From Octopus vulgaris (lineage: Eukaryota), in contig OX597842.1 of NCBI GenBank assembly GCA_951406725.2, forward strand, positions 20,150,001-20,214,000: a stretch of DNA of 64,000 bases, read 5' to 3'. The notes beneath the pieces are model-generated. The model had not been told where the DNA came from, ran no database searches, and saw only the letters and a program-made list of their open reading frames with translations. The translations under genes and the position numbers were made by a program. Within the stretch, counting starts at the first letter, position 1; the number at the start of each line of letters is the position of its first letter. This document shows positions 619-64,000 of this stretch, in pieces.

Positions 619-867
619 TCTTTATCTCCAAATCAATTCTTCCAATATTAAGGTTGTCATCTTCAAATTTCCAAGTCAAACATTTCTCAGTTACTTTTTT
701 GATCCAAAGCGTGGAGGTATCTCTTAAATGAGTCACTTTATAGTCAGGGCCATCAGCGCATGTCCTGTCACATTCATATTTATAATTCTGGCACTTCCAA
801 ACCACCGGTCGTTTCATATTAGGTATTGTTATCGAAAGGGTGAGGTTTCTATTGAGCACAGCAGGTC
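619..867 (-). CDS. 249-nt exon (phase 1-1) encoding a non-canonical Ig-like domain, left gene copy
   Basis: ttatttcAG acceptor and GTaagg donor; open frame GPAVLNRNLTLSITIPNMKRPVVWKCQNYKYECDRTCADGPDYKVTHLRDTSTLWIKKVTEKCLTWKFEDDNLNIGRIDLEIK; paralogues at 58292 and 63840. Confidence 0.8.
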
Positions 868-2850: not shown

Positions 2851-2889
2851 CACTTTGGGTGATATTATAATTTTGTGCACTTGACAAAT
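2851..2889 (-). CDS. 39-nt exon (phase 1-1): end of signal peptide and first strand of the domain, left gene copy
   Basis: ttttacAG/GTaaat boundaries; reads (Y)LSSAQNYNITQS(G) in frame with both flanking exons. Confidence 0.75.
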
Positions 2890-5542: not shown

Positions 5543-5588
5543 AGACAAATGTTACAAACAAACAGCAGAACAAGATCCATTTAGCCAT
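5543..5588 (-). CDS. Signal-peptide (leader) exon B, left gene copy
   Basis: ttttcAG-atcATG start; MAKWILFCCLFVTFV plus 1 nt, then GTaagt; matches 54013-54058. Confidence 0.8.
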
Positions 5589-6346: not shown

Positions 6347-6389
6347 AAAATAATGCAGACAAACAACAAAAGAACTTTAGAATGTCCAT
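6347..6389 (-). CDS. Alternative signal-peptide (leader) exon A, left gene copy
   Basis: ttttacAG-atcATG start; MDILKFFCCLSALF plus 1 nt, then GTaagt; same architecture and phase as exon B. Confidence 0.6.
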
Positions 6390-9955: not shown

Positions 9956-9996
<41 letters not shown>

Positions 9997-10319: not shown

Positions 10320-10367
<48 letters not shown>

Positions 10368-10752: not shown

Positions 10753-10783
<31 letters not shown>

Positions 10784-13975: not shown

Positions 13976-14350
13976 CATCATCATCGTTTAACGTCCGTTC
14001 TCCATGCCAGCATGGGCTGGACGGTTCGACCGGGGATCTGGGAAGCCAGAAGGCTGCACCAGACTCCAGTCTTATCTGGCAATGTTTCTACAGCTGGATG
14101 CCCTTCCTAATGCCAACCACTCCGAGAGTGTAGTGGGTGCTTTTTACATGCCACCCGCACAGGTGCCAGTCGAGGCGGCTCTGGCATCGGCCACGATTCG
14201 GATAGTGCTTTTTACGTACCACCAGTCCAGGGGTCCTGGCATCTGCCGGGTGCCACACTTGCCCCAACAGGTCTTCGCAAGCAAAGGGGGTTGGCATGGG
14301 TGCCTGTCGTGGGATGAGGTTCGATATCAACTTCGCTTGCCACAACAGGT
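13976..14350 (-). mobile_element. SINE/LINE-tail element with RTE-type (GAT)n end
   Basis: Minus strand ends GGACGTTAAACGATGATGATG and contains GGTTGGCATTAGGAAGGGCATCC; copies at 17788, 19666 (partial) and 25135. Confidence 0.55.
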
Positions 14351-14540
14351 CTTTGTGTATAAATGTATAAATTTTTCGCACTAAATTCTTTCCGTAGAAT
14401 TTATCAAAAAACGCGCAAAATTATTCCGTAGAATTTATCAAATTAAAAAACGCAAAATTAATATATTTTTTGAAATTGCAAATTATTTAGAATATAAAAC
14501 AAATGAAGTTAAATTTTAAAAAACATTTTATCCTATTTTT

Positions 14541-14576
<36 letters not shown>

Positions 14577-15579: not shown

Positions 15580-15743
15580 GGTACTACTTGAGAATAGTGG
15601 TCCCGGTGCGCGCTACCTAGTCGTGACTAATCGATCCTACAACGACTAGCAAGGTAAATAAAACACAAAGGATAGACTAGTCATGAGTAGCTAGTGCGGA
15701 TGCGCGACTACGCGCACAGGGACCACTGTTCTCAAGTAGTACC
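15580..15743. mobile_element. GGTAC-terminal Merlin-like MITE
   Basis: TIR GGTACTACTTGAGAA.AGTGGTCCC.GTGCGCG; the copy at 11521-11651 is flanked by the 9-bp repeat CACACATAT; related copy at 46974-47193. Confidence 0.7.
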
Positions 15744-18351: not shown

Positions 18352-18387
<36 letters not shown>

Positions 18388-20902: not shown

Positions 20903-20969
<67 letters not shown>

Positions 20970-20979
20970 GTATATATGT

Positions 20980-21037
<58 letters not shown>

Positions 21038-21355
21038 ATGCAATACAAAGTATTGCCTTCCAGTAAAAAGTAGCCCGTGAGAGAAAAATACACAAATTAG
21101 TAAATAAAACCAAAATATGGGTGAGAGACATATCTTGCAAAACCTGAAACCTGCAGGTACCACATTATCCATTTTCCGGGTGTTTCATCTTTCAGATGTT
21201 CTCCCTGGAGGTAAGACGGTTTTTTTTCCCTATTTTGTTGCACACACGCATTTTTGCTAATACATACGCGGTGAAGCTACACATTAGCGTCGTAATTTTG
21301 CGTTCGCTATTTCCAGTAAATATCGGTACTTAGTTGTGCCATTTATTTACTAATT

Positions 21356-21422
<67 letters not shown>

Positions 21423-23705
21423 TTATATATATATATATATATATGTGTGTTATATATATATATATATATATGTGTTTATATATATATATATATATATGTT
21501 TATATATATATATATATATATGTGTGTTTATATATATATATATATATATATATTTAATAATAATGCCGTCTATATAATATAAATAAATATATTCAAGTGA
21601 AAAAATTTACAGATTTTTTTCTCTTATAAGGTTTTTCACGCTAACTACCTGATAATTTCTTATTAACATTTTATCCTATTTTTTAAATATATATATATAT
21701 ATATAGATATGATTTAAAAATAGGATAAAATCTTCATAAGAAATTATCAGGTAGCGTGAAAAACCTTATAAGAGAAAAAATCTGTAAATTTTTTCCACTT
21801 GAATATATTTATTTATATTATATAGACGGCATTATTACACATAAATGCCGCATTCGGTACGATACGTTTATTTTGGTAGTTTTGACTTTAAGAGTCCCTC
21901 CTAGCGTGTGGCATTTATGTGTAATAATGCCCTCTATATAATATAATATATATATATATATATACCAACAATTGAGGAACGGCCTCAATAGGCCATTCAT
22001 CCCATTAGAAAGAGCAGCCAGGACTCCAAGTTGAATTTATTTATAGCCTCTGACTATTTCCTCTTTCTCACTAGACCGCTGGTGGCAAAATAATTTCTAT
22101 TGAATTTCTTGCTACCCTGAATTGATTAATTGAATATATATATATATATATGTATGTATATACCTTCAAGCAGGCGAGCCACATGCTAGAAATAACGGCC
22201 AAATCTCACAAAACTGCGATAACATAATGGACCTACTAACCTCTCTGCAAAGGGGGCCTTTCCTTCGTTTCAACTGGACAATTCACTTTGGATATCTTCG
22301 TGACCTCCGTGACAAGTGTGCGGGTTCTGTTTTTAAGTATCTACGTGTTGTGGGATATAGATATAAACGAAATTATGCCAGTAAAAAGCCTTGCATCTTA
22401 GACATTCTTACGGCTCGGCATTCAGTGGTTTGTAGTGTTCTTGTGCCGAAAGCAAATTCTCAGTTCACGAAGATATCATGTGAATTGTCACGAAAACAAA
22501 ACCGGTCTTGTGATGGTTTTATTCCATTTAAAACGAAGGAACGCCCTGCAAAAGATATCTTCGGAAAGACCTCGGCTTTTTGGGTTTTATTTTTAGTGGT
22601 GGGAAGGGCAGAAGTCTAAGAAATTCAAGTGAAATTGAAGTATTTTTTGTGAGATTTGGCTGCCATTTCTAGCATGTGGATAGCCTCCATGAAGATACAT
22701 ACACACATATGGTACTAGTCGTGACTAATCGATCCTACAACGACTAGCAAAGTAAATAAAACACAAAGGATCGATTAGTCATGAGTAGCTAGTGCGGATG
22801 CGCGACTACGCGCACAGGGACCACTGTTCTCAAGTAGTACCCACACACACACACATATATATACTCTTTTACTTGTTTCAGTCATCTGACTGCGGCCATG
22901 CTGGAGCCCTGGGACCATCAACGCGCAATTCGGCGTAACTTCGGTATAGGTACCGGATACATTTCAAGAAAGTGTTTTTTTTTAATATATATATATAGGG
23001 GGTTAGGGGTGGGAGAAAAGGGCTTCTGTTATCTTCAGAAATGTAAAGAAAGCCAACCCCGGGACTTATTCTATCGGTCTCTTTTTGCCGAACCGCTAAG
23101 TTACGGGGACATAAACACACCAGCATCGGTTGTCAAGCAATGCTAGGGGGACAAACACAGACACACACGCATATATATATACATACGACGGGCTTCTTTC
23201 AGTTTCCGTCTACCAAATCCACTCACAAGGCTTTGGTCAGTCCGAGGGTATAGTAGAAGACACTTGCCCAAGGTGCCAATCATGTGGTTGGTTAGCAAGC
23301 TACTTACCAAACAGCCACTCCTACGCCTATATATATATATATACATGTATACGACAGGCTTCTTTCAGTTTCTGTCTACCAAATCCACTCACAAGGCATT
23401 GGTCGGCCCGGGGCTATAGCAGAAGACACTTGCCCAAAATGCCACGCAGTGGGACTGAACCCGGAACCATGTGGTTGGTTAGCAAGCTACTTACCAAACA
23501 GCCACTCCTACGCCTATATATATATATATATATATACATATATACGACAGGCTTCTTTCAGTTTCTGTCTACCAAATCCACTCACAAGGCATTGGTCGGC
23601 CCGGGGCTATAGCAGAAGACACTTGCCCAAAATGCCACGCAGTGGGACTGAACCCGGAACCATGTGGTTGGTTAGCAAGCTACTTACCAAACAGCCACTC
23701 CTACG

Positions 23706-23743
<38 letters not shown>

Positions 23744-25825
23744 TACGACAGGCTTCTTTCAGTTTCTGTCTACCAAATCCACTCACAAGGCATTGGTCGG
23801 CCCGGGGCTATAGCGGAAGACACTTGCCCAAAATGCCACGCAGTGGGACTGAACCCGGAACCATGTGGTTAGCAAGCTACTTACCACACAGCCACTCCTG
23901 CGCCTATAAATCTGTTTCAGAATCGCTAACTTATTTCTCTACGTATTTCGAAAAAAAAACCCCAAAAAACTCCGGGACGGTTAACTTTGAAAACGCAATT
24001 TTTTAAAAATTCCTTTCGAAATGGGACCCTCCATAACCAAAACGTGCGATTCCGTAAAAAAAAAACCTCACTTATTTTACCGGAAAAATCGGATCCTACG
24101 AATTTCCGAAAGCCCCCACCCTACCCCAGGGACCGTCAGCGCGCAGTTTGGCGTAACTTCGGTATAGGTACCGGATACACTATATACTTTTCTAAATATA
24201 TATAGGGCGTTAGAAAAGGGCTTCTGTTATCTTCAGAAATGTAAAGAAAGCCAACTCCGGCACTTATGGTACCTATACCGAAGGATCGCCCGCAGTTTTC
24301 CTCATATTCCTATTCCACACTTGCTAACACCCGCTAGGCTGGTTTATATTCTCTTGTTCCCCGTTGAAAGTCTTTTTATTGACCCGCAAATGCATCTTAA
24401 CCAATCCATATTAATCTTACGATAGAAAAGTTAATCTCAGAAAATGAACAAACAGAAGCGATTAGCATCTCAACGATCGAAAGAGAATAGTCAGGATTTA
24501 CAGAAAAAAATAAATTCGTTTGCGCAATCTCTCTATATATAAAGCTGAAGTTGTCTGTGTGTGGTAGGTTTGGTAGCCTTCAACTAACACTATCTCCTCC
24601 GAGACCCTGCGGCGCAAGTTGACCAAAATTGAGAGTATGATAGAAGAAGGCTTGCTCTTCCTTCCGTAGAAGAAAAAATTCAAATCGGACCATGTTAACA
24701 CCAAAAATTATTTACATCAAAAAGGTGCTTTTTTCGGTAAAATGACAGATTAACAACCGCACGATTTTCACTAAGAAAAAAAAAAAAAAAAACTCGGCTT
24801 TTTTGCGTGGAATCAAGTACCCTGACCTCAAAAACAAAACAAAAAACCGAATTTTTTAGATACCTTTCTGCTTTTTAAGACAGTAAAGTGATATTGGAGG
24901 GAAATCTGGCTGCTATTTCTAGCTGCCTGAATGACAACATAGCGATTTACAGATAAATGAATTAATTACTATTTTACAGAATAAAATTAATTAATAATAT
25001 TTTTTGAACAAAGTAAATAATTTATAAAACTTGGTTAATAATTTTTTTTACACAAACGCGAACGTATATAATTTGTGAAACTTTTTTTTTACAGACGTAT
25101 ATAATTTGGTAAACTTAATGAATTAATTTCTTCTCATCATCATCGTTTAACGTCCGTTCTCCATGCCAGCATGGGTTGGACGGTTCGACCGGGGATCTGG
25201 GAAGCCAGAAGGCTGCACCAGACTCCAGTCTTATCTGGCAATGTTTCTACAGCTGGATGCCCTTCCTAACGCCAACCACTCCGAGAGTGTAGTTTGTGCT
25301 TTTTACATGCCACCCGCACAGGTGCCAGGCGAGGCTGGCAACGGCCACGGTCGGATTGGTGCCAGTCGAGGCGGCTCTGGCATCGGCCACGATTCGGATA
25401 GTGCTTTTTACGTACCACCAGCCCAGGGTCCTGGCATCTGCCGGGTGCCACACTTGCCCCAACAGGTCTTCGCAAGCAAAGGGGGTTGGCATGGGTGCCT
25501 GTCGTGGGATGAGGTTCGATATCAACTTCGCTTGCCACAACAGGTCTTTGTGTATAAATGTATAAATTTTTCGCACTAAATTCTTTCCGTAGAATTTATC
25601 AAATTAAAAAACGCAAAATTAATATATTTTTTGAAATTGCAAATTATTTAGAATATAAAACAAATGAAGTTAAATTTTAAAAATAAATGTCATATACTTA
25701 TACTCTGTAAGGTGCTGTGTTCACACTTCAATTTACTATTTTTTTCATATTCGTTTAGAGGAAGTTGTTTTTTTAACACCTATTACACAAATTTTTATTT
25801 TGTTTATTTGACCGGGTTTAACCGC

Positions 25826-26441: not shown

Positions 26442-27443
<1,002 letters not shown>

Positions 27444-27472
27444 GTCGCCGTTGCTTTGTCAGCATATTAAAT

Positions 27473-27488
27473 GGCCCTTTTTAGGGCC
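27473..27488 (+). promoter_or_regulatory. Histone 3' stem-loop (H3)
   Basis: GGCCCTTTTTAGGGCC. Confidence 0.93.
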
Positions 27489-27647
27489 GCCACATTATAT
27501 CCTAAGTATTCTCTTTCGATCGTTGATATGCTACTCGCTCCTGTTTGTTCAGTTTCTGTCTTCTCTTAGTTTTTCTTGGTCAATGTTAAGGTCCTCGCTC
27601 TTTAGCGAAAACAGGAGACGATCCAGTCAGCTGGGTGTTAGCAATTG

Positions 27648-28127
27648 GGATCTTTTCGGTTTGAACGGCAGTTTTTTTAACATAATTTCTAGGTGACTAA
27701 GAACTTATAAACTTCGTATACTGATAGAATGTGTTTCTATGACTTTCAGTTTAAATCGAAGTTCTAAGTTTGTAGAACGATATATAAAATACATATTATT
27801 TGAGTATATTTTTGATATTTACTCTATGCAAACTCATATAGCATCTTTGTCTTTCGTTTGTCTTGTATTGTCTCATTTTATATAAAATCGCCATGATCAT
27901 AATAGAGATACTCTATTGAGGTAAAGAAACATTCTGTGCCTTATGAATATGTCCCTCGTTTAATAAACAGATTGGTTTTATTTACATTTCTGAAGAGAAA
28001 ATTATATCCTTTCCCCACTAACCCTAAAACAGATTGAAATGCAATAGATCGATACTAGGGTCATAATTATGGGTGACAATTTCATATGACACCACTAGAA
28101 AAACTGCCGTTTAAACCGAAAAGATCC
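27648..28127. mobile_element. GGATC-terminal Merlin-like MITE
   Basis: ~29-bp TIRs; flanks AGCAATTG/AGTAATTG (7 of 8 match); copies at 38486-38966, 30373-30876, 42881-43219 and 48309-49132. Confidence 0.75.
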
Positions 28128-28354
28128 AGTAATTGTGTAGAAATCGAATATGAATAGAAAGGATTTGCGCAAACGATCCTGGCGGGTGGGGACCAGGATC
28201 CGATTTTCCCCTTATAATGCACATTTTCAGTTCCAGAAGCATGCGATGTTTTGCGCTGGGTATTTTTTGTTGTTTTCGCACTTATTTTTTTGTATCTTTA
28301 CTTTGTCGTTTACTGCGGGAGGTTTCTGATAGAAGAATGTGCAAAGGTGAGTAG

Positions 28355-28567
28355 TTAGTTAGTTAGTTAATTTGGCTCAAAAGCAAATAGCAAGGCCATG
28401 TAGGGGGACATGGAGTTAAGTACAGGGTGGTGTTCATGTAAAGAGTTCAGGCCACTTGAGGTCCAGGGAGGCTTTGAACAAAGCGGTCGTCGGCATCTTC
28501 ACCATCTCGTCTGGCAGCTTGTTCCACGGATCCGCAACCCGGACGGAGAAAGCTCCTCTCCTTCGAT
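28355..28567 (-). mobile_element. CR1-like 3' fragment present only in histone unit 1
   Basis: WNKLPDEMVKMPTTALFKASLD plus (AACT)n tail; TSD TGAGTAG at 28348-28354 and 28568-28574; empty site at ~39185. Confidence 0.8.
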
Positions 28568-28858
28568 TGAGTAGGTTGTTTACAGGTTTCTTTCGTTCTG
28601 TTATCGCAGTTTTGGAGATTTGGCTGTTATTTTTAGCACGTGGGAATGCTAATCTGCAAAAATAGACATTTCTAATTTATAACCCCCACTTCTTTCCTTC
28701 ATTTTAAACTTTTTTCATCACGAAATTATGCCAGCAATGTCTCATTTAAAACTTGGAGAGAAAGAATCCTTGCAGATTTGGTGTGATTTCTTTTTTGAAA
28801 ACAATAATGAATAATGCAAGAATATATTTATTTATAAAGTTTAAACAGAACATGGAAT

Positions 28859-29394
28859 GGGCGAAGTTTCGTTTGTCGTAGCACACGTTTCCGTCGATTT
28901 CCGTAAAAAATGTAAACACTGAATCGGCCATACATACATAGATACATACACACACACACATATATCATACACCGAGTAAAAAATTACACTGAATCGGCCA
29001 TACATACATACATACACACACACACACATACATAGATACATACACACACACACACATACATAGATACATACACACACACACATACATATACACATACACC
29101 GAGTAAAAAATCAGTTATCTCTCTCTTTCACACATTACTCTCTCTGTCTCTTCGCACACACTAACAGAAGCACTTCACTTACACAACATACTTTCTGTCT
29201 CCCACACCCCATCAAACACACATGTACATCAATGCTTCCCCTGGACGGTAACTTCAAAAGAACTTCCCTCGTCATACAATCGCTTTCTCTTAGTCTCTTT
29301 CGCTCTCATTACTTCAAATATTCCCGCAAAGCCATATGTAAAAAAATAAAAGTTTTTTACGGAAACGTGTGCTACGACAAACGAAACTTCGCCC
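28859..29394. mobile_element. MITE with perfect 36-bp TIR, unit 1 only
   Basis: GGGCGAAGTTTCGTTTGTCGTAGCACACGTTTCCGT and its exact complement; the interior is shared with 35350-35747. Confidence 0.8.
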
Positions 29395-29884
29395 AAACTG
29401 AACTTCAATTGTTTTATAAACCTAACAGCGTGGTGGTACGTAAATTAACGAAGGTATAAACCTGACCACGTAAATACACGAAGTTGACTACTTTCACTTC
29501 TGACAACTAGAAGCATGACAGTTCTCTTTATTACCCACAAGGGGCTAAACACAGGGGACAGACATAGGTATTAAGTCGATTATATCGACCCCACTGCGTA
29601 ACAGGTACTTAATTTGTCGACCTCGGCGGAATTTGAACTCAGAACGTAACGGCAGCCGAGATACCTATTTATTTATTACCCACAAAGGGCTAAACACAGA
29701 GGGGACAAGTAAGGACGGACAATGGGATTAAGTCGATTGCATCGACCCCAGTGCGTAACTGGTACTTATTTAAATCGACCCCGAAGGGATGAACGGTACA
29801 GTCGACCTCGACGGAATTTGAACACAGCGAGGGCAGCTAAGATTCAGAGTGGTCTCCCTTGTGCCGTTGTGGTTAAAAGTCCAA

Positions 29885-30370
29885 CTATATTAATAAGCTG
29901 AAGTTGTCTGTGTGTGGCAGGTTTGGTAGCCTTCAACTAACACCATCTCCTCCGAGACCCTGCGGTGCAAGTTGACCAAAATTGAGAGTATGATAGAAGA
30001 AGGCTTGCTCTTCATTCCATAGAAGAAAAAATTCGAATCGGACCATATTAACACCAAAATTTATTTACATCAAAAAATGCTTTTTTCTATGAAAATCCCT
30101 ATTTTCTTACGATTTTTTCACTGCTGTATCGACATTTTTCGGTGTATTTCAACCAGAAAAATGTTCACTTAAAGAGAATAATGCGAAATTTTTACTTCAA
30201 AAGTTCCAATTCTAAAGGATCGAAACAGACCCGGGCAGCACTGCTAGTATATATATATATAAAGCTGAAGTTGTCTGTGTATAGCAGGTTTGGTAGCCTT
30301 CAACTAACACTATCTCCTCTGAGACCCTGCGGAGCAAGTTGATCAAAATTGAGAGTATGATAGAAGGCTT
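29885..30370 (+). mobile_element. Non-autonomous Helitron-like element with tandem restart
   Basis: Start TATATAAAGCTGAAGTTGTC, end CCCGGGC..ACTGCTAGT; copies at 39956, 47478, 13221, 17029 and 24535. Confidence 0.55.
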
Positions 30371-31141
30371 GCGGATTTTTTCGGTTTGACCGGCAGCTTT
30401 TTAAAATAATTTCCACGTAACTAAACACTTTTAAACTTCGTATACTGGTAGAATGTGTTTATAAAACATCTTTTTCTCTTGGCTTTATTGAGAAAATTCT
30501 ATAGTTTGTAAAATATTTGGGATCTTTTCGGTTTGACCGGCAGCTTTTTAAAATAATTTCCACGTAACTAAACACTTTTAAACTTCGTATACTGGTAGAA
30601 TGTGTTCATAAAACATCTTTTTCTCTTGGCTTTATTGAGAAAATTCTACAGTTTGTAAGATACTTGTTTTTTTTTTCAACCAATCAATGACGTCTAGTGA
30701 GGTGAAAACGTTCTGTGGTCCCTTACATTTCCGAAGAAAAAAAAGATACCCTTCCCTCCAAACCCTAGCCCTAAAACAGATTGAAATGCAATAGATCGAT
30801 ACTAGGGTAATAATTATGGATGACAATTTCATATGACACTGCTAGAAAAAAAACTGCCGGTCAAACCGAAAAGATCGTGAGAAACAACCCCAGCCACTGG
30901 TAGAATACATGCGTATAGACACAATACAGTGTACATAAATAAACAATTCGTAGGGAAAAGATGAATCACGTCCACATAAAATAGACTTAAGTAAATTGGT
31001 AAAGATAAAACAGCTGATTACAATGACGTCTCTGCTACCATTTCCGAAATATTGGTTACGCTAATGTTATGGAAGCGGGTGGCGAATCTCTGGAGACTAG
31101 ACCAATCGTTTCCCCCTGCGTGAGAAAAAATGCAAAAATTC

Positions 31142-31340
31142 GGTAGTACATAACGAGGTCCCGGTGCGCGCACTCGCAACGAGACGATCCTAGCAAAGTA
31201 AATAAAACACAAAATAAATAATTATTTCTAAACAAAGTAAATAAAACACAAAATGAATTAAAGTAAATAAGAAACACAAAGGATCGACTAGTCACGTCTA
31301 GCTAGCGCGGTCACCGGGACCACTCTTCTGAAGTAGTACC
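31142..31340. mobile_element. GGTAC-type Merlin-like MITE with 8-bp TSD
   Basis: GGTAGTAC...GTAGTACC flanked by AAAAATTC on both sides; the same insertion occurs at 40818-41018. Confidence 0.8.
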
Positions 31341-31407
31341 AAAAATTCTTCAGACGAAAAAATCGCAAATATTAAGTCGAGAGAAGACGAATACGCAAAG
31401 TGTGAGA

Positions 31408-31423
31408 GGCCCTGAAAAGGGCC
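31408..31423 (-). promoter_or_regulatory. Histone 3' stem-loop (H2A)
   Basis: GGCCCTTTTCAGGGCC. Confidence 0.95.
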
Positions 31424-31461
31424 GTTGATACGGATAAAGCCAAAAATGCCACCGAATTAAT

Positions 31462-31839
31462 TTACTTGGAAGCCTTCTGGGTTTTCTTGGGCAGAAGAAC
31501 AGCCTGAATGTTGGGAAGAACACCACCCTGGGCGATGGTCACTCCGGACAAAAGTTTGTTCAATTCTTCGTCGTTACGGATGGCCAACTGCAAGTGACGG
31601 GGAATGATTCTCGATTTCTTGTTATCTCTGGCAGCATTTCCTGCCAATTCCAACACCTCAGCAGCCAAATATTCCATCACAGCGGCCAAGTAGACTGGGG
31701 CTCCGGCACCGACACGTTGGGCATAATTTCCCTTACGGAGAAGACGGTGGATACGACCGACAGGGAACTGAAGTCCGGCACGGGACGAACGGGTCTTGCT
31801 CTTTCCCTTTACTTTTCCTCCTTTACCACGTCCAGACAT
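31462..31839 (-). CDS. H2A: Histone H2A (canonical)
   Basis: 125 aa, [19 protein letters not shown]...[12 protein letters not shown]; no SQ(E/D)Y tail. Confidence 0.99.
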
Positions 31840-32108
31840 ATTTCAAAGTTCGACAGTAGTTCTCAACAAAGAAGACGGCCAAAGTTTAAAAAAGACGGCG
31901 GCTTTTGCCTTTAAATAGCAGTCATGAGGCTCCAGCAGCCACAAACTGCCGAGCGAAAAAGGAGCGGGTTTACGTCACGTGATTAGACTGCTGTCAAATT
32001 CCACCAATTAAATTGATTGGCGCGAAACGTCAGCAAGGTGCTCGGCTGAGCCTACTTGTCAATTATAAATAGCGTGGACGAGGGTTGATTAGTAGAGCAA
32101 GTGACATT
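31840..32108. promoter_or_regulatory. Bidirectional H2A/H2B promoter
   Basis: TATAAATA at 32064-32071, TATTTAAA on the minus strand (~31910), opposed CCAAT/ATTGG boxes and GTCACGTGA. Confidence 0.8.
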
Positions 32109-32486
32109 ATGCCACCAGCACCAGCAACTGCTTCGAAAGGAGCCAAGAAGGCCTCCAAGGCCAAGACCTCTCGCCCTGCCGGGGACAAGAAACGTAAGAA
32201 GAAGAGGAAGGAAAGTTATTCCATCTACATCTACAAAGTGATGAAGCAAGTCCACCCGGACACTGGCATCTCCAGCAAAGCTATGTCCATCATGAACAGT
32301 TTTGTCAACGATCTGTTCGAAAGAATAGCTTCTGAATCCAGCCGCTTGGCTCACTACAACAAACGTTCGACCATCAGTAGCCGTGAGGTGCAGACTGCTG
32401 TCCGTCTTCTCCTTCCTGGTGAGTTGGCCAAACACGCCGTCTCTGAGGGTACCAAGGCCGTCACCAAATACACTAGCAGCAAATAA
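32109..32486 (+). CDS. H2B: Histone H2B
   Basis: 125 aa, [15 protein letters not shown]...[26 protein letters not shown]...KYTSSK; ATG at 32109. Confidence 0.99.
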
Positions 32487-32518
32487 ACCTGCTTCGTTTC
32501 TCTTCATCGAAGAATAAC

Positions 32519-32534
32519 GGTCCTTTTCAGGGCC
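32519..32534 (+). promoter_or_regulatory. Histone 3' stem-loop (H2B)
   Basis: GGTCCTTTTCAGGGCC-ACCCA with one U-G pair. Confidence 0.95.
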
Positions 32535-33251
32535 ACCCACATTCTCATGAAAGTTAATTCAGATTTTCTGCCGATTTGCGATCCATGTTTTTGGGGTTAG
32601 GGTGTTAACGGCCATAGAATGGACTGGGGGAAGTAAAGGTACGTGATTTATACACATCGAAGCAGGTGGGGTATTTATATAAAATTTTTTTTTAATATTT
32701 TCCTAAATAGTGGAAAAGTTTGGATGTTGTGAATTTTCCGACGTCTGCTTTCTGCGCATTTTTGTTTTCATATTCGTTTTCTACACATTTTTATTTTACA
32801 ACCGTTGAAATTATACATCCATGCAAGTGACAAGCCTGGGATGTGCTAGAAACAATGACCAGTCCTCCCCGTAAGTTGCATCTTTCAGACTGAAAGTACT
32901 AAGACTTTGCTACGGAGTATGATGGGTGTGTGGTAGATTTAGATTGTAATCGTCAAATTTGAACAGCGGAATGACGACCGAATTTTAATGTTAAGAGAAT
33001 TATTCAGATGCAAAAAAGTGTGATTAAAGGGAGATTAGGCTGTTGTTTCTAACAGACAACCTTCTTCGTCTCTGATTTTTAGTGTTTTCTCAATTCTTTT
33101 AAAGATTTTCCTAAACCCAACACGTCATGGAGAATGCTAGAAACAACGGTCCGGAGAGGGAGCTAATTGAAAAAAGAAAAAGGCGCCGTTTTCGCCTACG
33201 GATAATACGATTTTTTTTTTCAAATTATGCGGAAAGAAAATACGGAGTTTT

Positions 33252-33950
33252 GGTTAATATCTAGATCCGCACCCGGTGGGAAAAATGGAAACGAAAATGT
33301 GTAACAGTTGTAAGGCATCGTATATTGACGGAATAAGACGGGAAAAAAGCGCGCTGACAAACGGGGGGGGGGGGCTCGGGAAATTCCCAGGATCAACCGT
33401 AGAGGCAAAAATGGAAAAAAATATGTGTAACAGGTGTAAGGCATCGTATATTGAAGGAATATGACGAAAAAAAAGCGCGCTGACAAACGGGGGGGGGGGG
33501 CTCGGAAAATTGCCTACGATTTAAAGAAAAATTTACCATCAACTTTCACCATTGTGTTTCTGATTCGCGACCCCATGTCGAATTTATCGATTTTTTTCAG
33601 AACTGGGGAACTTTTCAAAATTTTCGCTGCGTTAGTTTTGAATTATGACATTGGGCTATGTGTGAGATGCGTTTAAAATGGTGAAAATTGATGGTAAATT
33701 TTTCTTTAAATCGTAGGCAATTTTCCGAGCCCCCCCCCCCCCGTTTGTCAGCGCGCTTTTTTTTCGTCATATTCCTTCAATATACGATGCCTTACACCTG
33801 TTACACATATTTTTTTCCATTTTTGCCACCTGGGCGTGGATCCTCTACGGTTGATCCTGGGAATTTCCCGAGCCCCCCCCCCCCACCCTTACAACTGTTA
33901 CACATTTTCGTTTCCATTTTTCCCACCGGGTGCGGATCTAGATATTAACC
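33252..33950. mobile_element. Foldback-like element with ~270-300-bp modular inverted arms
   Basis: GGTTAATATCTAGATCCGCACCCGG... mirrored to 33950; arms contain tandem subrepeats and poly-G/poly-C runs; ~125-bp spacer; GTTTT on both flanks. Confidence 0.75.
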
Positions 33951-34640
33951 GTTTTTATATTGAAATTTTACATGAATCAGAGGTATTATCCGTAGTCGAA
34001 AACGGGGGTTTATGTAGAAATGAAAACTTTTTTTAAGGGTGGTGCAAAGAGTAGAGAAAAATGTGCATGAAAGCAACCGGGGAAAATTCACAAGATCCGA
34101 GTCTTTTGCTCATGAATTTTAGGAAATGTGGGGGTTTTTTTTCAAGCGACAGATTACTATTATAAAGAAATTTGTGGGGAAAATCTTTTCCGAGGGGGTT
34201 CAAAGAGAAGGAAATACATAAATTACTTATCTGCTTAAGGGTATTCCATTGAAATAGAGAAATGCTTTTAAAAAGATCCCATGTACCATGGTGAGAGACA
34301 ACTGTTGTTTTTAGCATATCTCACGCCCGTCCGATACCCTCCTTATCTTAATATTTTCGGTTAATTACTACAAGTTCTCTCTCAGTCACCAATAAGGAAA
34401 GTTAACAAGATCTATATTTAATGTTTTACAACATAAAAAATGCGCCAATGTACCTAGCGGTATACATTCTTCCGTGTCATTAGGGACACGGGTATATAAG
34501 CCTCCAAAAGAACGTTATCAAGTCGCTGGGTCGGCGATGACCCGTATGAATAATAACCGAGCGACATTCCAAATACATTTTTACCTGCTTCCCCATAAAC
34601 GCTCAATATTGAGTGTGAATTGAAAGGTATTCATATAAAA

Positions 34641-34917
34641 CTAGCAGTATCGCCCGGCGTTGCTCGGATTTGTAAGGGAAATAACTATAAAGCATTTTTA
34701 GAGAGTTATAGCCAAAAGATAGCAAAAAATGCATTAAAATGGAAAAAATGATGGTAAATTATTTTTAAAATCGTAGACGCGCGCTAATACCCAGAAGGGC
34801 TCGATATGAATCACGACTATAAGATACCCGGTTTTGGTTACACTGCACCGCAAAATGTGGGAGTAGTTAGGAATCTAAATCGTAGGAGACAGACACAACC
34901 TTACTTTTATATATAAA
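34641..34917 (-). mobile_element. Non-autonomous Helitron-like element
   Basis: Minus-strand 3' end CCGAGCAACGCCGGGCGATACTGCTAG-T (subterminal hairpin plus CTAG). Confidence 0.65.
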
Positions 34918-34971
34918 ATTTCATTAAAGCTTTTGTTCTCCGCAGCAGCCGGGGCTTCGTCCTCACCAATA

Positions 34972-35140
34972 CAATAACCCCTCGGCTATCGCAGGTGCTA
35001 CGTTCCAAAAAGTCCCGCGTTAGGTGAAAATCCGAAGTAGAAACTACTGTATATATTTTTAAATATTTGAATATACTATTTATAAATACAGAACTCCACG
35101 GAGGAATCGTAAACCGTGATATAGCGACGAGAGACTACTG
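34972..35140. mobile_element. Tigger/pogo-like MITE
   Basis: TA-CAATAACCCCTCG ... CGAGAGACTACTG-TA degenerate TIRs. Confidence 0.45.
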
Positions 35141-35349
35141 TATACTGAATATCGTCTGCTTTTCACGATCATGTGAGTGAACACGCTCGCACACACCCAT
35201 TATCTTTCACACGTAAAGATGTACAATAATACTTACTTACCTTTACGAGTTAATAAGCTTAACACCCGGCCACCAAAACAAAAAGTCGTCTAATAGCGGT
35301 AAAAAAGTGTAAGAACCGATTACTCGGCAGAGGCAAAGAAAAATTCACC

Positions 35350-35747
35350 GGCGATCTTTCGTCTCTTGTAGACCTTTCCGTCGATTTCCGTAAAAAAATT
35401 TTTTTTTTTTACATATGGGCTTGCGGGAACTTTTGAAGTAATATACATACATATACACATACACCGAGTAAAAAAGTTCAGTTATCTCTTTCTTTCACAC
35501 ACTAACAGAAGCACTTCACTTACACAACATACTGTCTGTCTCCCACACCCCATCAAACACACACACACATGTACATCAATGCTTCCCATGCACGGTAACT
35601 TCAAAAGAACTTCCCTCGTCTTACAATCGCTTTCTCTTAATCTCTTTCCCTCTCATTACTTCAAAAGTTCCCGCAAGCCCATATGTAAAAAAAAAATTTT
35701 TTTTTACGGAAATCGACGGAAAGGTCTACTAGAGACGAAAGATTGCC
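35350..35747. mobile_element. Merlin-like MITE with ~90-bp TIR and 8-bp TSD
   Basis: GGCGATCTTTCGTCTC... / ...GAGACGAAAGATTGCC; TSD AATTCACC at 35342-35349 and 35748-35755. Confidence 0.85.
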
Positions 35748-36201
35748 AATTCACCTTGCATCCGAACCGCTAACATTTTTCTTTTACAATTCTTCCTAAC
35801 TTTTTCGATTGTCTTCTGCATAATGGAATGACTATGCAATAACAAAACCTACTAACGGGGGCTAAACAAGGACAGGGAAATACACACCCAAAAATTAAAC
35901 CCCGCCCGTATTTCTATTGGAGGCTGCAGACTTCTTGTTCCGTAGCTGGCACAAAATTTAATTTTCATTTTCAATAGTTTTTAAATATTACTCCCAAGTG
36001 TTACTAGACTTTCTAAAGAGAAATCTACTTAGTCCCTGTGAACCAGCAATCGCGTCAACGATATAATAAAACGTAAATTGTTTAGGGTAAAGGATCGCAC
36101 TTCGGTGTGAAATAACCCTTCTCCCCAAAAGGGCGTGCACCAACTTTGCCAAAGGGGCACCTCGAAAACCAGTAGCTGCAAATTAACGTCTAAACACAGA
36201 A

Positions 36202-36280
36202 GAAGCACATCGCGATTTAGAAGAGTTGACTTAAATTAAAAAGTAGGTGGCCCTGAAAAGGCCCGGTGTTTTGAAGAAGC
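36202..36280 (-). pseudogene. Orphan H4 3' end (mutated stem-loop plus downstream flank, no CDS)
   Basis: Matches 26348-26428; stem-loop GGGCCTTTTCAGGGCC at 36249-36264 has one broken pair. Confidence 0.8.
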
Positions 36281-37286
36281 TATTTCGGTCAAACTAAAGC
36301 GTTAAACCCGGTCAAAAAAGCAAAAAAAAACCCCAAATTTGTGTAAAACTACTTGCTCTAAACGAATGACGAAAAGGATGCGCGCTCGCGATAGGGGTGC
36401 TTTTTTTTCCGAAATACGTACAAGAATACGGAGTTTATGATTCATGTGTGAGTGTGTGTTCTTGATAATCGTTTAGAACAAGTAGTTTTACACCAATTAC
36501 ACTATTCTTTTCTTAGTTTAAAGGCCGTGGACTGAAGATGTGAAATTTCGAGGCCTCTCCCCAACTCCTAGTTCGCGCATTTTCTTTTTCATATTCGTTT
36601 AGAGGAAGTTGGATTTTTAACACCTATTACACAAATTTTTATTTTGTTTATTTGACCGGGTTTAACCGCTATTTCTTTATTACCCATAAGGGTTTACATA
36701 GATGGGGACAATACAATGATTTGGGGTCATGAAATGGAACTATTTACAGTGAAATCGAATGGATCATTTACAATGAAAATGAAATTGAATGAGTCACAAG
36801 AACAAAAAGGGACGGACATATGAAGTCAAAAGAACAGGATAGCCGACCCTACGAGCCCTGTTATTTAAACTGAAACCTTTTGGTAAGTGATCATAGCGTG
36901 TTCATGCAGGGCCTTTCACACCTAGCATCCGTGCAACACGCATCCATCTTTTTTTGAATACAGACACCTTTTCTCTAGCCCCACCTTCCTTTTCAGATGG
37001 AACCTAAAGTCCGTTAGGGCGGTGCCAGATATCATAGTGTCTGCCATTATACCTTTCACTAACCTCTTTCGCAACTGCTACTATCACGAGAAAGCAATGC
37101 TTACCTTCGTTCGTCATGGAACCAGGCGGGTCAATTTTTAAGATTGACTCAGACGACAGCTGTACTCTCCTTCCGTCCGACAACACAAGATGAAGCACAT
37201 TGCGATTTAGAAGAGTTGACTTAAATTAAAAAGTGGGTGGCCCTGAAAAGGGCCGGTATGTTTCAAAGAAGCTTAAGGTTCTTAGC

Positions 37287-37658
<372 letters not shown>

Positions 37659-37861
37659 TTACACTCAATCGGACGTAGCAGAAAACACCTCGAGAAATAG
37701 GTCACGTGCTCTGAAGCCGCGAATGAAAATGTGTCACATCAGCAGCAGTCGGTTTGGCGGGCAGCTGTCATTTGTAAATCTAACAAAGCCATCTTCCCGC
37801 CCAACCTTTCCTTCTTTAACGGTCACTATATAAAGTGTGACGGTTGGCCCCTATCTATTGA

Positions 37862-38281
<420 letters not shown>

Positions 38282-41139
38282 GTCGCCGTTGCTTTGTCAG
38301 CATATTAAATGGCCCTTTTTAGGGCCGCCACATTATATCCTAAGTATTCTCTTTCGATCGTTGATATGCTACTCGCTCCTGTTTGTTCAGTTTCTGTCTT
38401 CTCTTAGTTTTTCTTGGTCAATGTTAAGGTCCTCGCTCTTTAGCGAAAACAGGAGACGATCCAGTCAGCTGGGTGTTAGCAATTGGGATCTTTTCGGTTT
38501 GAACGGCAGTTTTTTTAACATAATTTCTAGGTGACTAAGAACTTATAAACTTCGTATACTGATAGAATGTGTTTCTATGACTTTCAGTTTAAATCGAAGT
38601 TCTAAGTTTGTAGAACGATATATAAAATACATATTATTTGAGTATATTTTTGATATTTACTCTATGCAAACTCATATAGCATCTTTGTCTTTCGTTTGTC
38701 TTGTATTGTCTCATTTTATATAAAATCGCCATGATCATAATAGAGATACTCTATTGAGGTAAAGAAACATTCTGTGCCTTATGAATATGTCCCTCGTTTA
38801 ATAAACAGATTGGTTTTATTTACATTTCTGAAGAGAAAATTATATCCTTTCCCCACTAACCCTAAAACAGATTGAAATGCAATAGATCGATACTAGGGTC
38901 ATAATTATGGGTGACAATTTCATATGACACCACTAGAAAAAGCTGCCGTTTAAACCGAAAAGATCCAGTAATTGTGTAGAAATCGAATATGAATAGAAAG
39001 GATTTGCGCAAACGATCCTGGCGGGTGGGGACCAGGATCCGATTTTCCCCTTATATTGCACATTTTCAGTTCCAAAAGCATATGTTTTGCGCTGGGTATT
39101 TTTTGTTGTTTTCGCACTTATTTCTTTGTATCTTTACTTTGTCGTTTACTGCTGGAGATTTCTGATAGAAAAATGTGCAAAGGTGAGTGGATTAATTACA
39201 TGATTTTTTGTACTGTTATCGCAGTTTTGGAGATTTGGCTGTTATTTTTAGCACGTCGATAGCCTGCTTCAAGTCGACGGGGAATGCTAATCTGCAAAAA
39301 TAGACATTTCTAATTTATAACCCCCACTTCTTTCCTTCATTTTTAACTTTTTTCATAACTAAATTATGCCAGCAATGTCTCATTTAAAACTTGGAGAGAA
39401 AGAATCCTTGCAGATTTGGTGTGATTTCTTTTTTGAAAACAATAATGAATAATGCAAGAATATATTTATTTATAAAGTTTAAACAGAACATGGAATGAAA
39501 TGTATTTATTTATAAACTTTATAAACCTAACAGCGTGGTGGTACGTAAATTAACGAAGGTATAAACCTGACGGAAATACACGAAGTTGACTACTTTCACT
39601 TCTGTCAGCTAAAAGCATGACAGTGCACTTTATTACCCACAAGGGGCTAAACACAGAGGGGACAGACATAGTTATTAAGTCGATTATGTCGACCCCACTG
39701 CGTAACTGGTACTTTGTCGACCTCGGCGGAATTTGAACTCAGAACGTAACGGCAGCCGAGATACCTATTTATTTATTACCCACAGAGGGGACAATGGGAT
39801 TAAGTCGATTGCATCTACTCCAGTGCGTAACTGGTGCTTATTTAATCGATCCCGAAGGGATGAACGGTAAAGTCGACCTCGACGGAATTTGAACACAGCG
39901 AGGGCAGCTAAGATTCAGAGTGGTCTCCCTTGTGCCGTTGTGGTTAAAAGTCCAACTATATTAATAAGCTGAAGTTGTCTGTGTGTGGTAGGTTTGGTAG
40001 CCTTCAACTAACACCATCTCCTCCGAGACCCTGCGGTGCAAGTTGACCAAAATTGAGAGTATGATAGAAGAAGGCTTGCTCTTCATTCCGTAGAAGAAAA
40101 AATTCGAATCGGACCATGTTAACACCAAAATTTATTTACATCAATAAATGCTTTTTTTCTATGAAAATCCCTATTTTTTACGATTTTTTCACTGCTGTGT
40201 CACCATTTTTCGGTGTATTTCAACCAGAAAAATGTTCACTTAAAGAGAATGATGCAAAATTTTTACTTCAAAAATTTCAATTCTAAAGGATCGAAACAGA
40301 CCCGGGCAGTACTGCTAATATATATATAATGCTGAGGTTGTCTGTGTGGTAGGTTTGGTAGCTTTCGACTAATAACTATCTCCTCCGAGACCCTGCGGCG
40401 CAAGTTGACCAAAATTGAGACTTCGTATACTGGTAGAATGTATTTATAAAACATCCTTTTCTCTTGGCTCTATTGAGAAAATTCTATAGTTTGTAAGATG
40501 TTTTTTTTTCAACCAATCAATGACGTCTATTGAGATGAAAACGTTCTGTGCCGTATGAATGTCTCTCGTTTAAGAAACACGAAAAAAAAGATCCCCTCCC
40601 TCCAAACCCTAAAACAGATTGATACTAGGGTCATAATTATGGATGACAATTTCATGACACTCTTTAGTAAATTGGTAAAGATAAAACAGCTGATTACAAT
40701 GACGTCTCTGCTACCATTTCCGAAATATTGGTTAAGCTAATGTTATGGAAGCGGGTGGCGAATCTCTGGAGACTAGACCAATCGTTTCCCCCTGCGTGAG
40801 AAAAAATGCAAAAATTCGGTACTACATAACGAGAGATCCCGGTGCGCGCACTCGCAACGAGACGATCCTAGCAAAGTAAATAAAACACAAAATAAATAAT
40901 TATTTCTAAACAAAGTAAATAAAACACAAAATGAATTAAAGTAAATAAGAAACACAAAGGATCGACTAGTCACGTCTAGCTAGCGCGGTCACCGGGACCA
41001 CTCTTCTGAAGTAGTACCAAAAATTCTTCAGACGAAAAAATCGCAAATATTAAGTCGAGAGAAGACGAATACGCAGAGTGTGAGAGGCCCTGAAAAGGGC
41101 CGTTGTTTTGGCTAAAGCCAAAAATGCCACCGAATTAAT

Positions 41140-41517
41140 TTACTTGGAAGCCTTCTGGGTTTTCTTGGGCAGAAGAACAGCCTGAATGTTGGGAAGAACA
41201 CCACCCTGGGCGATGGTCACTCCGGACAAAAGTTTGTTCAATTCTTCGTCGTTACGGATGGCCAACTGCAAGTGACGGGGAATGATTCTCGATTTCTTGT
41301 TATCTCTGGCAGCATTTCCTGCCAATTCCAACACCTCAGCAGCCAAATATTCCATCACAGCGGCCAAGTAGACTGGGGCTCCGGCACCGACACGTTGGGC
41401 ATAATTTCCCTTACGGAGAAGACGGTGGATACGACCGACAGGGAACTGAAGTCCGGCACGGGACGAACGGGTCTTGCTCTTTCCCTTTACTTTTCCTCCT
41501 TTACCACGTCCAGACAT
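41140..41517 (-). CDS. H2A: Histone H2A
   Basis: Protein identical to copy 1; stem-loop at 41086-41101. Confidence 0.99.
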
Positions 41518-41786
41518 ATTTCAAAGTTCGACAGTAGTTCTCAACAAAGAAGACGGCCAAAGTTTAAAAAAGACGGCGGCTTTTGGCTTTAAATAGCAGT
41601 CAGGAGGCTCCAGCAGTCACAAACTGCCGAGCGAAAAAGGAGCGGGTTTATGTCACGTGATTAGACTGCTGTCAAATTCCACCAATGAAATTGATTGGCG
41701 CGAAACGTCAGCAAGGTGCTCGGCTGAGCCTACTTGTCAATTATAAATAGCGTGGACGAGGGTTGATTAGTAGAGCAAGTGACATT

Positions 41787-42164
41787 ATGCCACCAGCACC
41801 AGCAACTGCTTCGAAAGGAGCCAAGAAGGCCTCCAAGGCCAAGACCTCTCGCCCTGCCGGGGACAAGAAACGTAAGAAGAAGAGGAAGGAAAGTTATTCC
41901 ATCTACATCTACAAAGTGATGAAGCAAGTCCACCCGGACACTGGCATCTCCAGCAAAGCTATGTCCATCATGAACAGTTTTGTCAACGATCTGTTCGAAA
42001 GAATAGCTTCTGAATCCAGCCGCTTGGCTCACTACAACAAACGTTCGACCATCAGTAGCCGTGAGGTGCAGACTGCTGTCCGTCTTCTCCTTCCTGGTGA
42101 GTTGGCCAAACACGCCGTCTCTGAGGGTACCAAGGCCGTCACCAAATACACTAGCAGCAAGTAA
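41787..42164 (+). CDS. H2B: Histone H2B
   Basis: Protein identical to copy 1; stem-loop at 42197-42212. Confidence 0.99.
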
Positions 42165-50143: not shown

Positions 50144-52069
50144 AACAATAGTTTAAACAATACACGTGTGTCTCAAAACAAAAACAAAACGAATAATTTT
50201 AGACACACGCGTAACAATTAAATTAATTTATTAATTAATGAAAAAAAAACGAAAGGCTAAAATTAGGGTTAGGGTCAGTGTTAGTGAATTTTTTTTAAAC
50301 AAAGTAAATAAAACTCAAAAACACAAAGTAAGGATTGACTAGTCATGACTAGCTTGTGCGGATGCGTGACTACACAAGTGCGCGCACTGTGACGTCTATA
50401 CTCAAGTAGTACCGCCTCTTCGTCTGTGCCATAAGAGAAGTTTGTGTCAGTGACTGACGTTGTTTACCAAAACTGAAGAATTACGTCTGGAAATCTTTCG
50501 GCTTTGGCTGCAGAAGCGTCGAATTTGATCAGCGGATTGTTCGTAAATTCCCGTAAAAAATTATTTTCTTTTCTTTTATTTTGATGATGAGTGGAAGGCG
50601 ATATTTGCTTCTGAGAGGAGAAAGTGAAAGATGTGTGTCCCTGTTTATGAAAGATAACGGATGTACGCGCCATCACGCCATATTCAGCTGTATCTACTTG
50701 TAGTTAGTCACACCCAAACACACATCTACACTCCTTATCTTTCATATACATGTACGTAATAGACCGATAGAATAAGTACTGGGCTTACAAAGAATAAGTT
50801 CTAGGGTCGATTTCCTCGATTAAAGGCGGTGCTCCAGCATGGCCGCAGCCAAATGACTGAAATAAGTAAAAGAGTAAAGAGTAATATTGAAGTCTATTAT
50901 GAAAAAAAAATATGATAGGTTTGCACACACACACACATACTGACAGATATAACATTGTTCTATCAAAATTTCAAGTTTCAATTCACGATGTGTATGTAAT
51001 TATGTATGTGTGTGAGCCCACAAATTTTGTTTACATATTAAATTCTGAGATAATCGTTACCTTCACAATCCGAATGATATTTGTAGGAAATTCCACTAAA
51101 AAAATATCCATTTTTCCAAAAGTTATGAGGAAATAAAGCCAACTGATGTGAATTTTCCAAAACTTTTCACTCCACCTTCGGAAAACTTTTTCACATCAAA
51201 TTCCGATATATCCATTAATATCCATTTGTCAGAAAGTTATGAGTAAAGAAAGGTGTGTCATTTAAGGGAGATCTGCCTGTTGTTTCTAACACATTCCACA
51301 ACCACCTTTCTTGTTTCTTCCTCATTCTAACATGTATTCATGTTTTTCAATATTGTTGTCCCCATAAAAACATTTATGCTATTAAAAAAAACTGGTTTGA
51401 AAATTTGATTTTTGGTGGAATTCTCGTTTAAGAACCCCATATGACCACTCATAACCTTTTTACTTTTTGAATTTTTTAAAAATTCAGTACATTTTCAGTA
51501 AAATTCTAAAAAATAATATCTTTTATTTTTTTCTTTCAGAAACTAAGTTCTTTTCGTTGTTTGTATTTCCCAGTTGGTTTTTGAAACTTCCCATTGCATC
51601 AAGCCACAACTATAAGGTTTGTCCAAAAAGAAGAGATTCTGTTGTAAATATTGGATTGTATTGTAATAAAAACACAAGATATATATTAAAGATTATTTCG
51701 TAAAATTAAGGTGAACATCAGTAATATATCGATATGCTATTTTCTGATACTGATTCTCTTAAATTAATAATTAAGATGATATTTCATTTTATGATCCATT
51801 TTATGTCTTTTCAATAATTATATTAATTTGTGTGTGTTGCAAAAATTTTCTGAAATTATAAGAACTGTTTAAACCAGGATTCTACCTGGAAGGCCACAAT
51901 TATACAAATACCTGTAATTTGGTATTTGTTTTCATTCAGCAAGAAGAAAGAAAGAGACAAAAAATGCAGTTGCTTTAGTGTTGTATAGTAATTGATAAAA
52001 CTCAAAAAAAAAGGGGAGGAGGCGGAAACAATGCAAAGTTTAAATCTGTCTCTTCAAATTTTACATTAA

Positions 52070-54012: not shown

Positions 54013-54058
54013 ATGGCTAAATGGAACTTGTTCTGCTATTTGTTTGTAACATTTGTCT
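54013..54058 (+). CDS. Signal-peptide (leader) exon, right gene copy
   Basis: ttttcAG-atcATG; MAKWNLFCYLFVTFV plus 1 nt; GTaagt donor. Confidence 0.8.
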
Positions 54059-55775: not shown

Positions 55776-55814
55776 GTTTGTCAAGGGCAAAAAAGTATAG
55801 GATCACCCAAAGTG
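55776..55814 (+). CDS. 39-nt exon, cassette 1
   Basis: ttttacAG/GTaaat boundaries; (C)LSRAKKYRITQS(G). Confidence 0.75.
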
Positions 55815-58291: not shown

Positions 58292-58540
58292 GAATTGCTC
58301 TGCTCAATGGATGTCTCACCCTTTCGATAACAACACCCAATATGATACGACCGGTGGTTTGGAAATGCGGCAATTATAAATATGAATGTGACAGGACATG
58401 CGCTGATGGCCCTGACTATAAAGTGACACAGGATGGAAATACCTCCACGCTTTGGATCAGAAAAGTAACTAAGAAATGTTCGATTTGGAAATTTGAAGAT
58501 GACAACCTTAATGTTGGAAAAATTAATTTGGAGATAAAGA
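58292..58540 (+). CDS. 249-nt Ig-like domain exon, cassette 1
   Basis: ttatttcAG/GTaaga boundaries; GIALLNGCLTLSITTPNMIRPVVWKCGNYKYECDRTCADGPDYKVTQDGNTSTLWIRKVTKKCSIWKFEDDNLNVGKINLEIK. Confidence 0.8.
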
Positions 58541-61261: not shown

Positions 61262-61300
61262 GTTTCTCAAGTGCAAACATTTACAAGATCACCCAAAGTG
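61262..61300 (+). CDS. 39-nt exon, cassette 2
   Basis: ttttacAG/GTaaat boundaries; (x)FSSANIYKITQS(G). Confidence 0.75.
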
Positions 61301-63839: not shown

Positions 63840-64000
63840 GAATTGCTCTGCTCAATGGATGTCTCACCCTTTCAATAACAATACCTAATATGAAACGACC
63901 GGTGGTTTGGAAATGCGGCAATTATAAATATGAATGTGACAGGACATGCGCTGATGGCCCTGACTATAAAGTGACACAGGATGGAAATACCTCCACGCTT
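63840..64000 (+). CDS. Ig-like domain exon, cassette 2 (truncated by the window end)
   Basis: ttatttcAG acceptor; GIALLNGCLTLSITIPNMKRPVVWKCGNYKYECDRTCADGPDYKVTQDGNTSTL. Confidence 0.75.

Follow-up and report, generated by a model that had tools for sequence, protein, structure and literature searches.

The window, by which we mean the whole 64,000-nucleotide stretch of Octopus vulgaris DNA that was analysed, is the centre of an inverted gene layout on contig C29, with genes g01–g09 on the minus strand and g10–g13 on the plus strand. It holds parts of g09 and g10, whose domain exons at 619–867 (the single domain of g09) and 58292–58540 (domain 1 of g10) are paralogous, 249 nt long and phase-1/phase-1 (Table 1). 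About 0.5 kb outside the left end of the window sits the tail exon of g09, which carries a stop inside its hydrophobic helix and is likely to act as a GPI signal. Domain 3 and the tail exon of g10 follow 7–9 kb past the window end; this tail exon stops after two codons, and the g10 product is likely to be secreted. Two tandem alternative signal-peptide exons were seen in g05, g06 and g09.

Table 1. Features of the window, with positions counted from its first base
Feature	Position	Strand	Basis or remark
Sole domain exon of left-hand gene g09	619..867	-	249 nt; splice sites, open frame
39-nt exon of g09	2851..2889	-	Gene model
g09 signal-peptide exon A, coding part	5543..5588	-	Gene model
g09 signal-peptide exon B, alternative, coding part	6347..6389	-	Both exon types start annotated isoforms
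Core histone genes (H4, H3, H2A, H2B), intact and in two sets, between g09 and g10	26442..42164		Translations
Probable upstream (5' untranslated) exon, precedes most cluster genes	51531..51650	+	Inferred from position
g10 signal-peptide exon, coding part	54013..54058	+	Same exon type starts annotated homologues
39-nt exon: end of signal peptide and first strand, g10 domain 1	55776..55814	+	Exon type spliced to domain exon in 4/4 runs
Domain exon 1 of right-hand gene g10	58292..58540	+	249 nt; strands A'-G of predicted V/I-set Ig domain; AG/GT splice sites, open frame; family contigs cover exon and end at its borders
39-nt exon: linker and first strand, g10 domain 2	61262..61300	+	Domain-to-39-nt joins of exon type in 3/4 runs
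g10 domain exon 2, cut by window end	63840..64000	+	Gene model

The genes between g09 and g10 are, from their translations, what we take to be histone genes. Intact histone genes (about nine H2A, 12 H2B, 7–8 H3 and 7 H4) are interleaved throughout the cluster (C29 19.73–20.48 Mb), and the Ig-type and histone genes are therefore likely to have been duplicated together; repeats of the histone genes might seed unequal crossing-over. Closer to g09, a 15-kb block (9129–24829) consists of nested recent duplications (units of 1–3 kb, 95–99% identical), is rich in short interspersed repeats and contains no exon of the family.

Searching the 2.8-Gb genome yielded 77 domain matches, none with an internal stop, of which 67 lie on C29. 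All 30 exons fetched were exactly 249 nt long with intact splice sites, and all 28 matches found at DNA level with at least 82% identity were likewise intact 249-nt exons, without a single broken close copy among them. Mapping a region of 754 kb that surrounds the window resolved 16 separate genes, which together hold 26 domain exons; one further gene lies 1.9 Mb away. Every one of the 17 genes has a signal exon, of which there are two types, and a tail exon of its own, with one to four cassettes between them that each pair a 39-nt with a 249-nt exon in a uniform phase. A single locus with a shared constant region was thus rejected, in contrast to clustered protocadherins and sDscam, where variable exons are spliced to one shared constant region. 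The gene g10 mirrors g07 in both sequence and domain number.

The tail exons fall into several classes. Five of the 17 genes end in a membrane helix followed by a tail of 6–8 residues, which we read as transmembrane; in four, including g09, a shared TGA lies inside the membrane helix, and what is left comprises small residues together with a spacer and a hydrophobic end; five have a different tail exon that is short and hydrophobic; and three, including g10, share a TAA that ends the reading frame of the tail exon after two codons and are read as likely secreted. The second and third classes (4 + 5 of 17 genes) are likely to be GPI-anchored, as judged by eye and hydropathy, presuming that GPI-signal rules apply here. 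A signalling tail, ITIM/ITAM motifs and a fibronectin-like region were all absent from the 17 mapped genes, whose tails span 0–8 residues. More distant family members (P0008–P0010, P0045) have longer cytoplasmic tails with tyrosines and might be signalling partners.

Splicing was assessed by placing reads on the domain exon with 25-base flanks, using four runs from four studies whose RNA status is the tool's guess, no run in the list being recorded as RNA. In all four runs, contigs covered the domain exon and ended at its borders, bar one shallow contig. Loose contig ends matched the preceding 39-nt exon in four runs, the following 39-nt exon in three and a tail exon in two, with paralogues supplying most splice joins. 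All four runs contained contigs identical to g10 domain 1, which differs there from g07 domain 1 by just one base; alleles and paralogues look the same in such contigs when set against a single assembly. Exons of the early-stop gene type were also found spliced.

No Pfam match was obtained for the single domain; the Pfam I-set cut-off was passed by the multi-domain homologues P0002 and P0009, and Atlas assigned the single domain to V/I-set clusters at 0.87–0.90. An AlphaFold model of the paralogue P0015, built on a 44-sequence alignment, reached a pLDDT of 95–98 over the domain and folded into a sandwich of two sheets, its strands being A', B, C, C', D, E, F and G. Compared with V/I-set domains including CEACAM1, CD8 and CD58, the model gave Z scores of 9.7–10.7 and an rmsd of 2.2–3.1 Å over 82–93 residues at 4–17% identity. 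Its top Foldseek and VIA matches were again V/I-set domains, with V and I-set tied, and DSSP, inspected for the C'' strand peculiar to V-set domains, returned one bridge residue after C'. The C-strand tryptophan W23 is invariant in 30 of 30 exons and the E-strand L53 is present in at least 90%. No cysteine that could form the B–F disulfide occurs on the predicted strands B or F, and the F strand reads x-W-x-F, without a tyrosine corner; conserved cysteines are found instead at positions 25, 32, 36 and 62, and probably pair as 32/36 and 25/62. The domain is thus predicted to be a non-canonical V/I-set member of the Ig superfamily, since the usual B–F disulfide is absent here, as it is in Hydractinia Alr proteins. 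A PDB sequence search returned CD2 as its sole match, at a nonsignificant E value of 0.43.

Comparing the two domain exons, we reproduced the 18 amino-acid-changing and three silent codon differences of the earlier note, among 82 whole codons rather than 83, the exon ends being split codons. The changes cluster as described (PAVLNRN/IALLNGC and HLRD/QDGN), and NYKYECDRTCADGPDYKVT is indeed invariant at protein level, with one silent change at codon 45. The three 39-nt exons, with the readings QNYN/KKYR/NIYK, differ at 6–7 of 39 bases, compared with 1.5–3.5% of 200 intron bases upstream and 4.7–9.3% of 150 downstream. Each of the three variable clusters flagged in the exon pair and the 39-nt exons gains or loses an N-x-S/T glycosylation site; as an enriched feature, glycosylation-site toggling was discarded, with four polymorphic sites being matched in 177 of 660 simulations.

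Taken against its own silent sites, the pair gives an omega of 1.4–1.8 with a one-sided p of 0.23–0.39, that is no significant excess of dN over dS, since 18:3 is close to what a site ratio of about 3:1 permits. Measured against their own flanking introns, the exons are more diverged (28 of 249 bases versus 40 of 857, Fisher p = 4 × 10⁻⁴). Cassettes 1 and 2 of g10, when set against each other, show no exon excess (10 of 249 bases versus 23 of 449 in the downstream intron). The excess of amino-acid change that had been read from the quoted pair is therefore not significant for that pair alone, but holds once paralogues are added to give 22 domains; it is this larger set, at an omega of about 2.1, that supports the proposed diversifying selection.

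The 22 domains come from the 27 mapped ones and represent g01–g12, genes g13–g17 being omitted as older or as having introns that are not fully alignable; they derive from one genome and one haplotype. Tree-free minimum counts gave 93 nonsynonymous changes at 186 sites (0.50), 19 synonymous changes at 60 sites (0.31) and 84 changes at 462 intron sites (0.18). The comparison of nonsynonymous with synonymous counts is marginal, with p = 0.04 at the intron-estimated kappa of 2 and p = 0.12 at kappa 1. Nonsynonymous change density, in turn, is 2.7 times that of introns (p = 3 × 10⁻¹¹), which, with no close copy broken, does not match neutral pseudogene decay, the outcome the earlier note had set against selection. 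Seven of 104 steps involved several bases; with single-base steps only, the count ratio is 1.41 (p = 0.11) and the comparison with introns remains at p = 8 × 10⁻⁸. Because synonymous sites also exceed introns (p = 0.04), part of the exon excess may reflect intron homogenisation. Neither CpG mutation (11 of 108 exon changes versus 7 of 84 intron changes were of CpG type) nor an A>G bias derived from RNA editing (no A>G strand bias) was supported as a cause of that excess.

The codon-model analysis across paralogues suggested earlier, performed here with our own code rather than codeml or HyPhy, yielded an M0 omega of 2.15 and a 2dL of 62.5 for M1a versus M2a, with 44% of sites at an omega of 4.6; optimising branches changed the 2dL to 61.2. 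Segment-wise trees gave a 2dL of 41.9 with three segments and 32.9 with five, while omega stayed at 2.2. Recombination on its own inflates this test: simulations with recombination and no selection passed the nominal cut-off in 28 of 40 and 39 of 60 cases (67 of 100), with maxima of 41.2 and 57.6, compared with one of 40 without recombination. Still, 2dL stayed short of 62.5 in all 140 no-selection simulations, in which omega never exceeded 1.56 nor the count ratio 1.10; a count ratio of 1.6 was reached in three of 200 fully neutral simulations. The number of invariant sites (35) was reached in 15 of 200 neutral simulations and is thus not clearly above neutral. A further point against selection is that omega is 0.17–0.67 between old subfamilies, with 14 of the 15 tested pairs belonging to comparisons across or inside such groups, although the one young pair in another subfamily gave 2.5.

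Exchange between copies, which had been raised as possible gene conversion, is borne out as well. In a permutation test on the 22 domains, neighbouring informative sites were more compatible than shuffled ones in both exon and intron (p = 2 × 10⁻⁴ each). Moreover, the exon at 58292–58540 sides with g07 domain 1 at 12 of 15 sites and its downstream intron with g07 domain 2 at 18 of 20, a switch with p = 5 × 10⁻⁵ that was chosen after the fact. A triplet max-chi scan gave p values of 5 × 10⁻⁵ to 8 × 10⁻³ for the best triplet of each of the 22 domains; being best-of-many and uncorrected, these were not counted as proof. Cassette 2 does carry both IPNMK and QDGN, as had been pointed out, but IPNMK sharing fails as evidence of conversion, being only the majority state (I14 in 19 of 22 domains, K18 in 18 of 22).

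Selection and exchange in functional genes are, on these data, very probable. The opposite account holds that there is no positive selection at all, the genes being relaxed or decaying duplicates and the signal stemming from recombination, mutation bias or homogenised introns. It can draw on the nonsignificant quoted pair, the marginal tree-free test, the inflated site test and the stop in the membrane exon of 7 of 17 genes. However, about five stops would be expected among 112 changes and none was seen, nor was any exon indel; the tail stops are common to several genes and located in the last exon, and exons of the early-stop gene type are spliced. Together with the simulation ceilings on omega and the mutation-class counts given above, this leaves decay without selection largely refuted and, in our judgement, very improbable.

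The codon models placed 21 sites at a posterior above 0.95. Strands C, F and G show an alternation of variable and invariant residues; most residues of strands C', D and E are fixed, while the loops vary. Because of this alternation, rather than from coordinates, the variable residues are likely to face outward on the C-F-G sheet, a common adhesion face. Such a location would also suit a code for self or cell identity comparable to Hydractinia Alr, Dscam or protocadherins, in which each variant binds its own kind and diversity is selected for distinct identities. A GxxxG motif in the membrane helix would fit such a code, and an invertebrate allorecognition complex does hold clustered, diverse, non-canonical V-set genes, as far as the available text of PMC9546547 describes it. 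Against such a code stand the short tails of the 17 mapped genes, with neither ITIM/ITAM nor a fibronectin-like region, and the heavy exchange between copies, which would blur matched pairs. Secreted copies, too, suit decoys better, and with a tail exon per gene there is no variable-to-constant cassette layout. We regard an identity code as unlikely, though the likeliest of the competing functional or neutral accounts.

Labels on the homologous proteins name Octopus vulgaris, O. sinensis, O. bimaculoides and Argonauta, all of the proteins being uncharacterised. Looking up ten proteins returned names for nine, none of them from squid or cuttlefish and one from abalone; this abalone tandem-Ig protein scores an HMMER E value of 3 × 10⁻¹³ over five stretches and an hhalign probability of 9%. 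Matches to bacterial HYR-domain and ankyrin proteins were set aside as likely noise. Only two of ten distinct O. sinensis-labelled domains lie within two residues of a domain found here, indicating rapid turnover between sister species. The g15 domain (C29:20445205–20445504) is one residue from an O. sinensis domain, and this member may be a conserved orthologue; most young domains lack a one-to-one match.

Rapid turnover between sister species would be expected if reproduction, that is recognition between gametes or within the reproductive tract, or chemical contact with prey or conspecifics drove the fast evolution, and CEACAM/PSG families include reproductive members according to the portion of PMC2832619 at hand. 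Close copies, scored at no fewer than half of words, were nevertheless present in 15 runs from 6 studies under one organism label, which is unlike expression in one narrow tissue, although the runs lack tissue labels. Overall, we consider a reproductive or contact-related driver distinctly improbable.

Several known systems resemble the octopus cluster in part. The V domains of the CD2/CD58/SLAM type share the V-like fold (CD58, Z 9.7), and CD2 and CD58 likewise do without the B–F disulfide; the octopus proteins, in contrast, have no C2 domain and form a multigene mosaic cluster. Molluscan FREPs and VIgL proteins are diversified, contain Ig domains and have a proposed immune role, but a C-terminal fibrinogen or lectin domain is their defining feature, and no such domain appears in the octopus gene models or in Pfam scans of homologues.

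The closest parallel in design is CEACAM/PSG, which, in the text available of PMC2832619 and PMC11646289, likewise comprises clustered Ig genes with species-specific expansion, V-like domains and high dN/dS. The same sources, so far as their available text goes, report that stop codons in membrane exons created GPI signals, that the CFG face is where variation lies and that genes in inverted orientation convert each other. In both families, altered membrane exons account for a mix of transmembrane, GPI-anchored and secreted products, in octopus on prediction, with GPI use judged by eye. Further marks of CEACAM/PSG are the binding of pathogen adhesins and homophilic binding. Structural identity, however, is only 8–10%, and a sequence search of the PDB with a cut-off of E 10 gave no CEACAM match, nor was one present among the named homologues. 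All octopus domains share a single V/I-like type, carrying CxxxC plus another cysteine pair, and include no IgC domains; no ITIM/ITAM member occurs among the 17 mapped genes, even if distant members with tyrosine-bearing tails exist. Judged by sequence, the octopus family is not a member of CEACAM/PSG, and since it is octopod, the likeness is to be read as convergent.

Hydractinia Alr, as presented in the accessible part of PMC9546547, is similarly an invertebrate Ig cluster without the diagnostic B–F cysteines that was found by structure only. According to the same text, Alr proteins retain the salt bridge, while the C-strand tryptophan, invariant in octopus, has mostly been lost from them; they combine V+I+I domains with a fibronectin-like region and a long cytoplasmic tail, none of which is seen in the octopus gene models. 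Allorecognition function has been shown for Alr1/2 (PMC9546547, part of the text), whereas the octopus family is known here from genes and predictions. High allelic polymorphism is another hallmark of Alr. The octopus family is not an Alr member. The role as an immune or allorecognition receptor suggested earlier is putative: fold and architecture fit, and a signalling tail is missing from all 17 mapped genes.

On balance, we lean with modest confidence towards an intact, spliced family under diversifying selection that trades sequence between copies and provides binders or decoys, on the surface or shed, for microbial partners that change quickly. In such a birth-and-death cluster, a changing partner would push the binding surface to differ; new variants would arise by point change, be favoured and then be recombined by gene conversion and unequal crossing-over, with the inverted layout and symmetric exon phases being of help. 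Stop codons in the tail exons would switch copies among membrane-spanning, likely GPI-anchored and likely secreted forms, the shed or secreted copies acting as decoys or opsonins. Because the mapped genes have no signalling tail, we propose that their products would not rely on signalling alone but would bind, block or be shed.

A bolder reading, which we offer tentatively and doubt somewhat more than we believe, is that octopods independently built a germline-diversified Ig recognition system of CEACAM-like membrane, GPI and secreted binders, with faces reshuffled by gene conversion and differing between individuals, as their main diversified immune or self-recognition repertoire. None such is described for octopuses in the literature searched. 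For molluscs, the available text of PMC13428168, a review of immune diversification from 2026, mentions FREPs and their diversification; for cephalopods it gives only haematopoiesis. No description of the octopus family itself was found in a search of main texts that included gene identifiers; supplements and subscription papers may list the genes. For diversified recognition in octopuses, the cluster offers a concrete candidate that can be put to the test. It would also be an invertebrate convergence on the CEACAM design, with its fast binding face, inverted-copy conversion and anchor switching by stop codons. As the proteins are small, their expression, polymorphism and binding are directly testable.

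Finally, in run X5, a contig joined the domain exon (at 58540) to a hybrid tail exon with a membrane-type start and a GPI-like-type remainder; this tail exon is absent from the 17 mapped genes and represents another gene, an allele or a recombinant.
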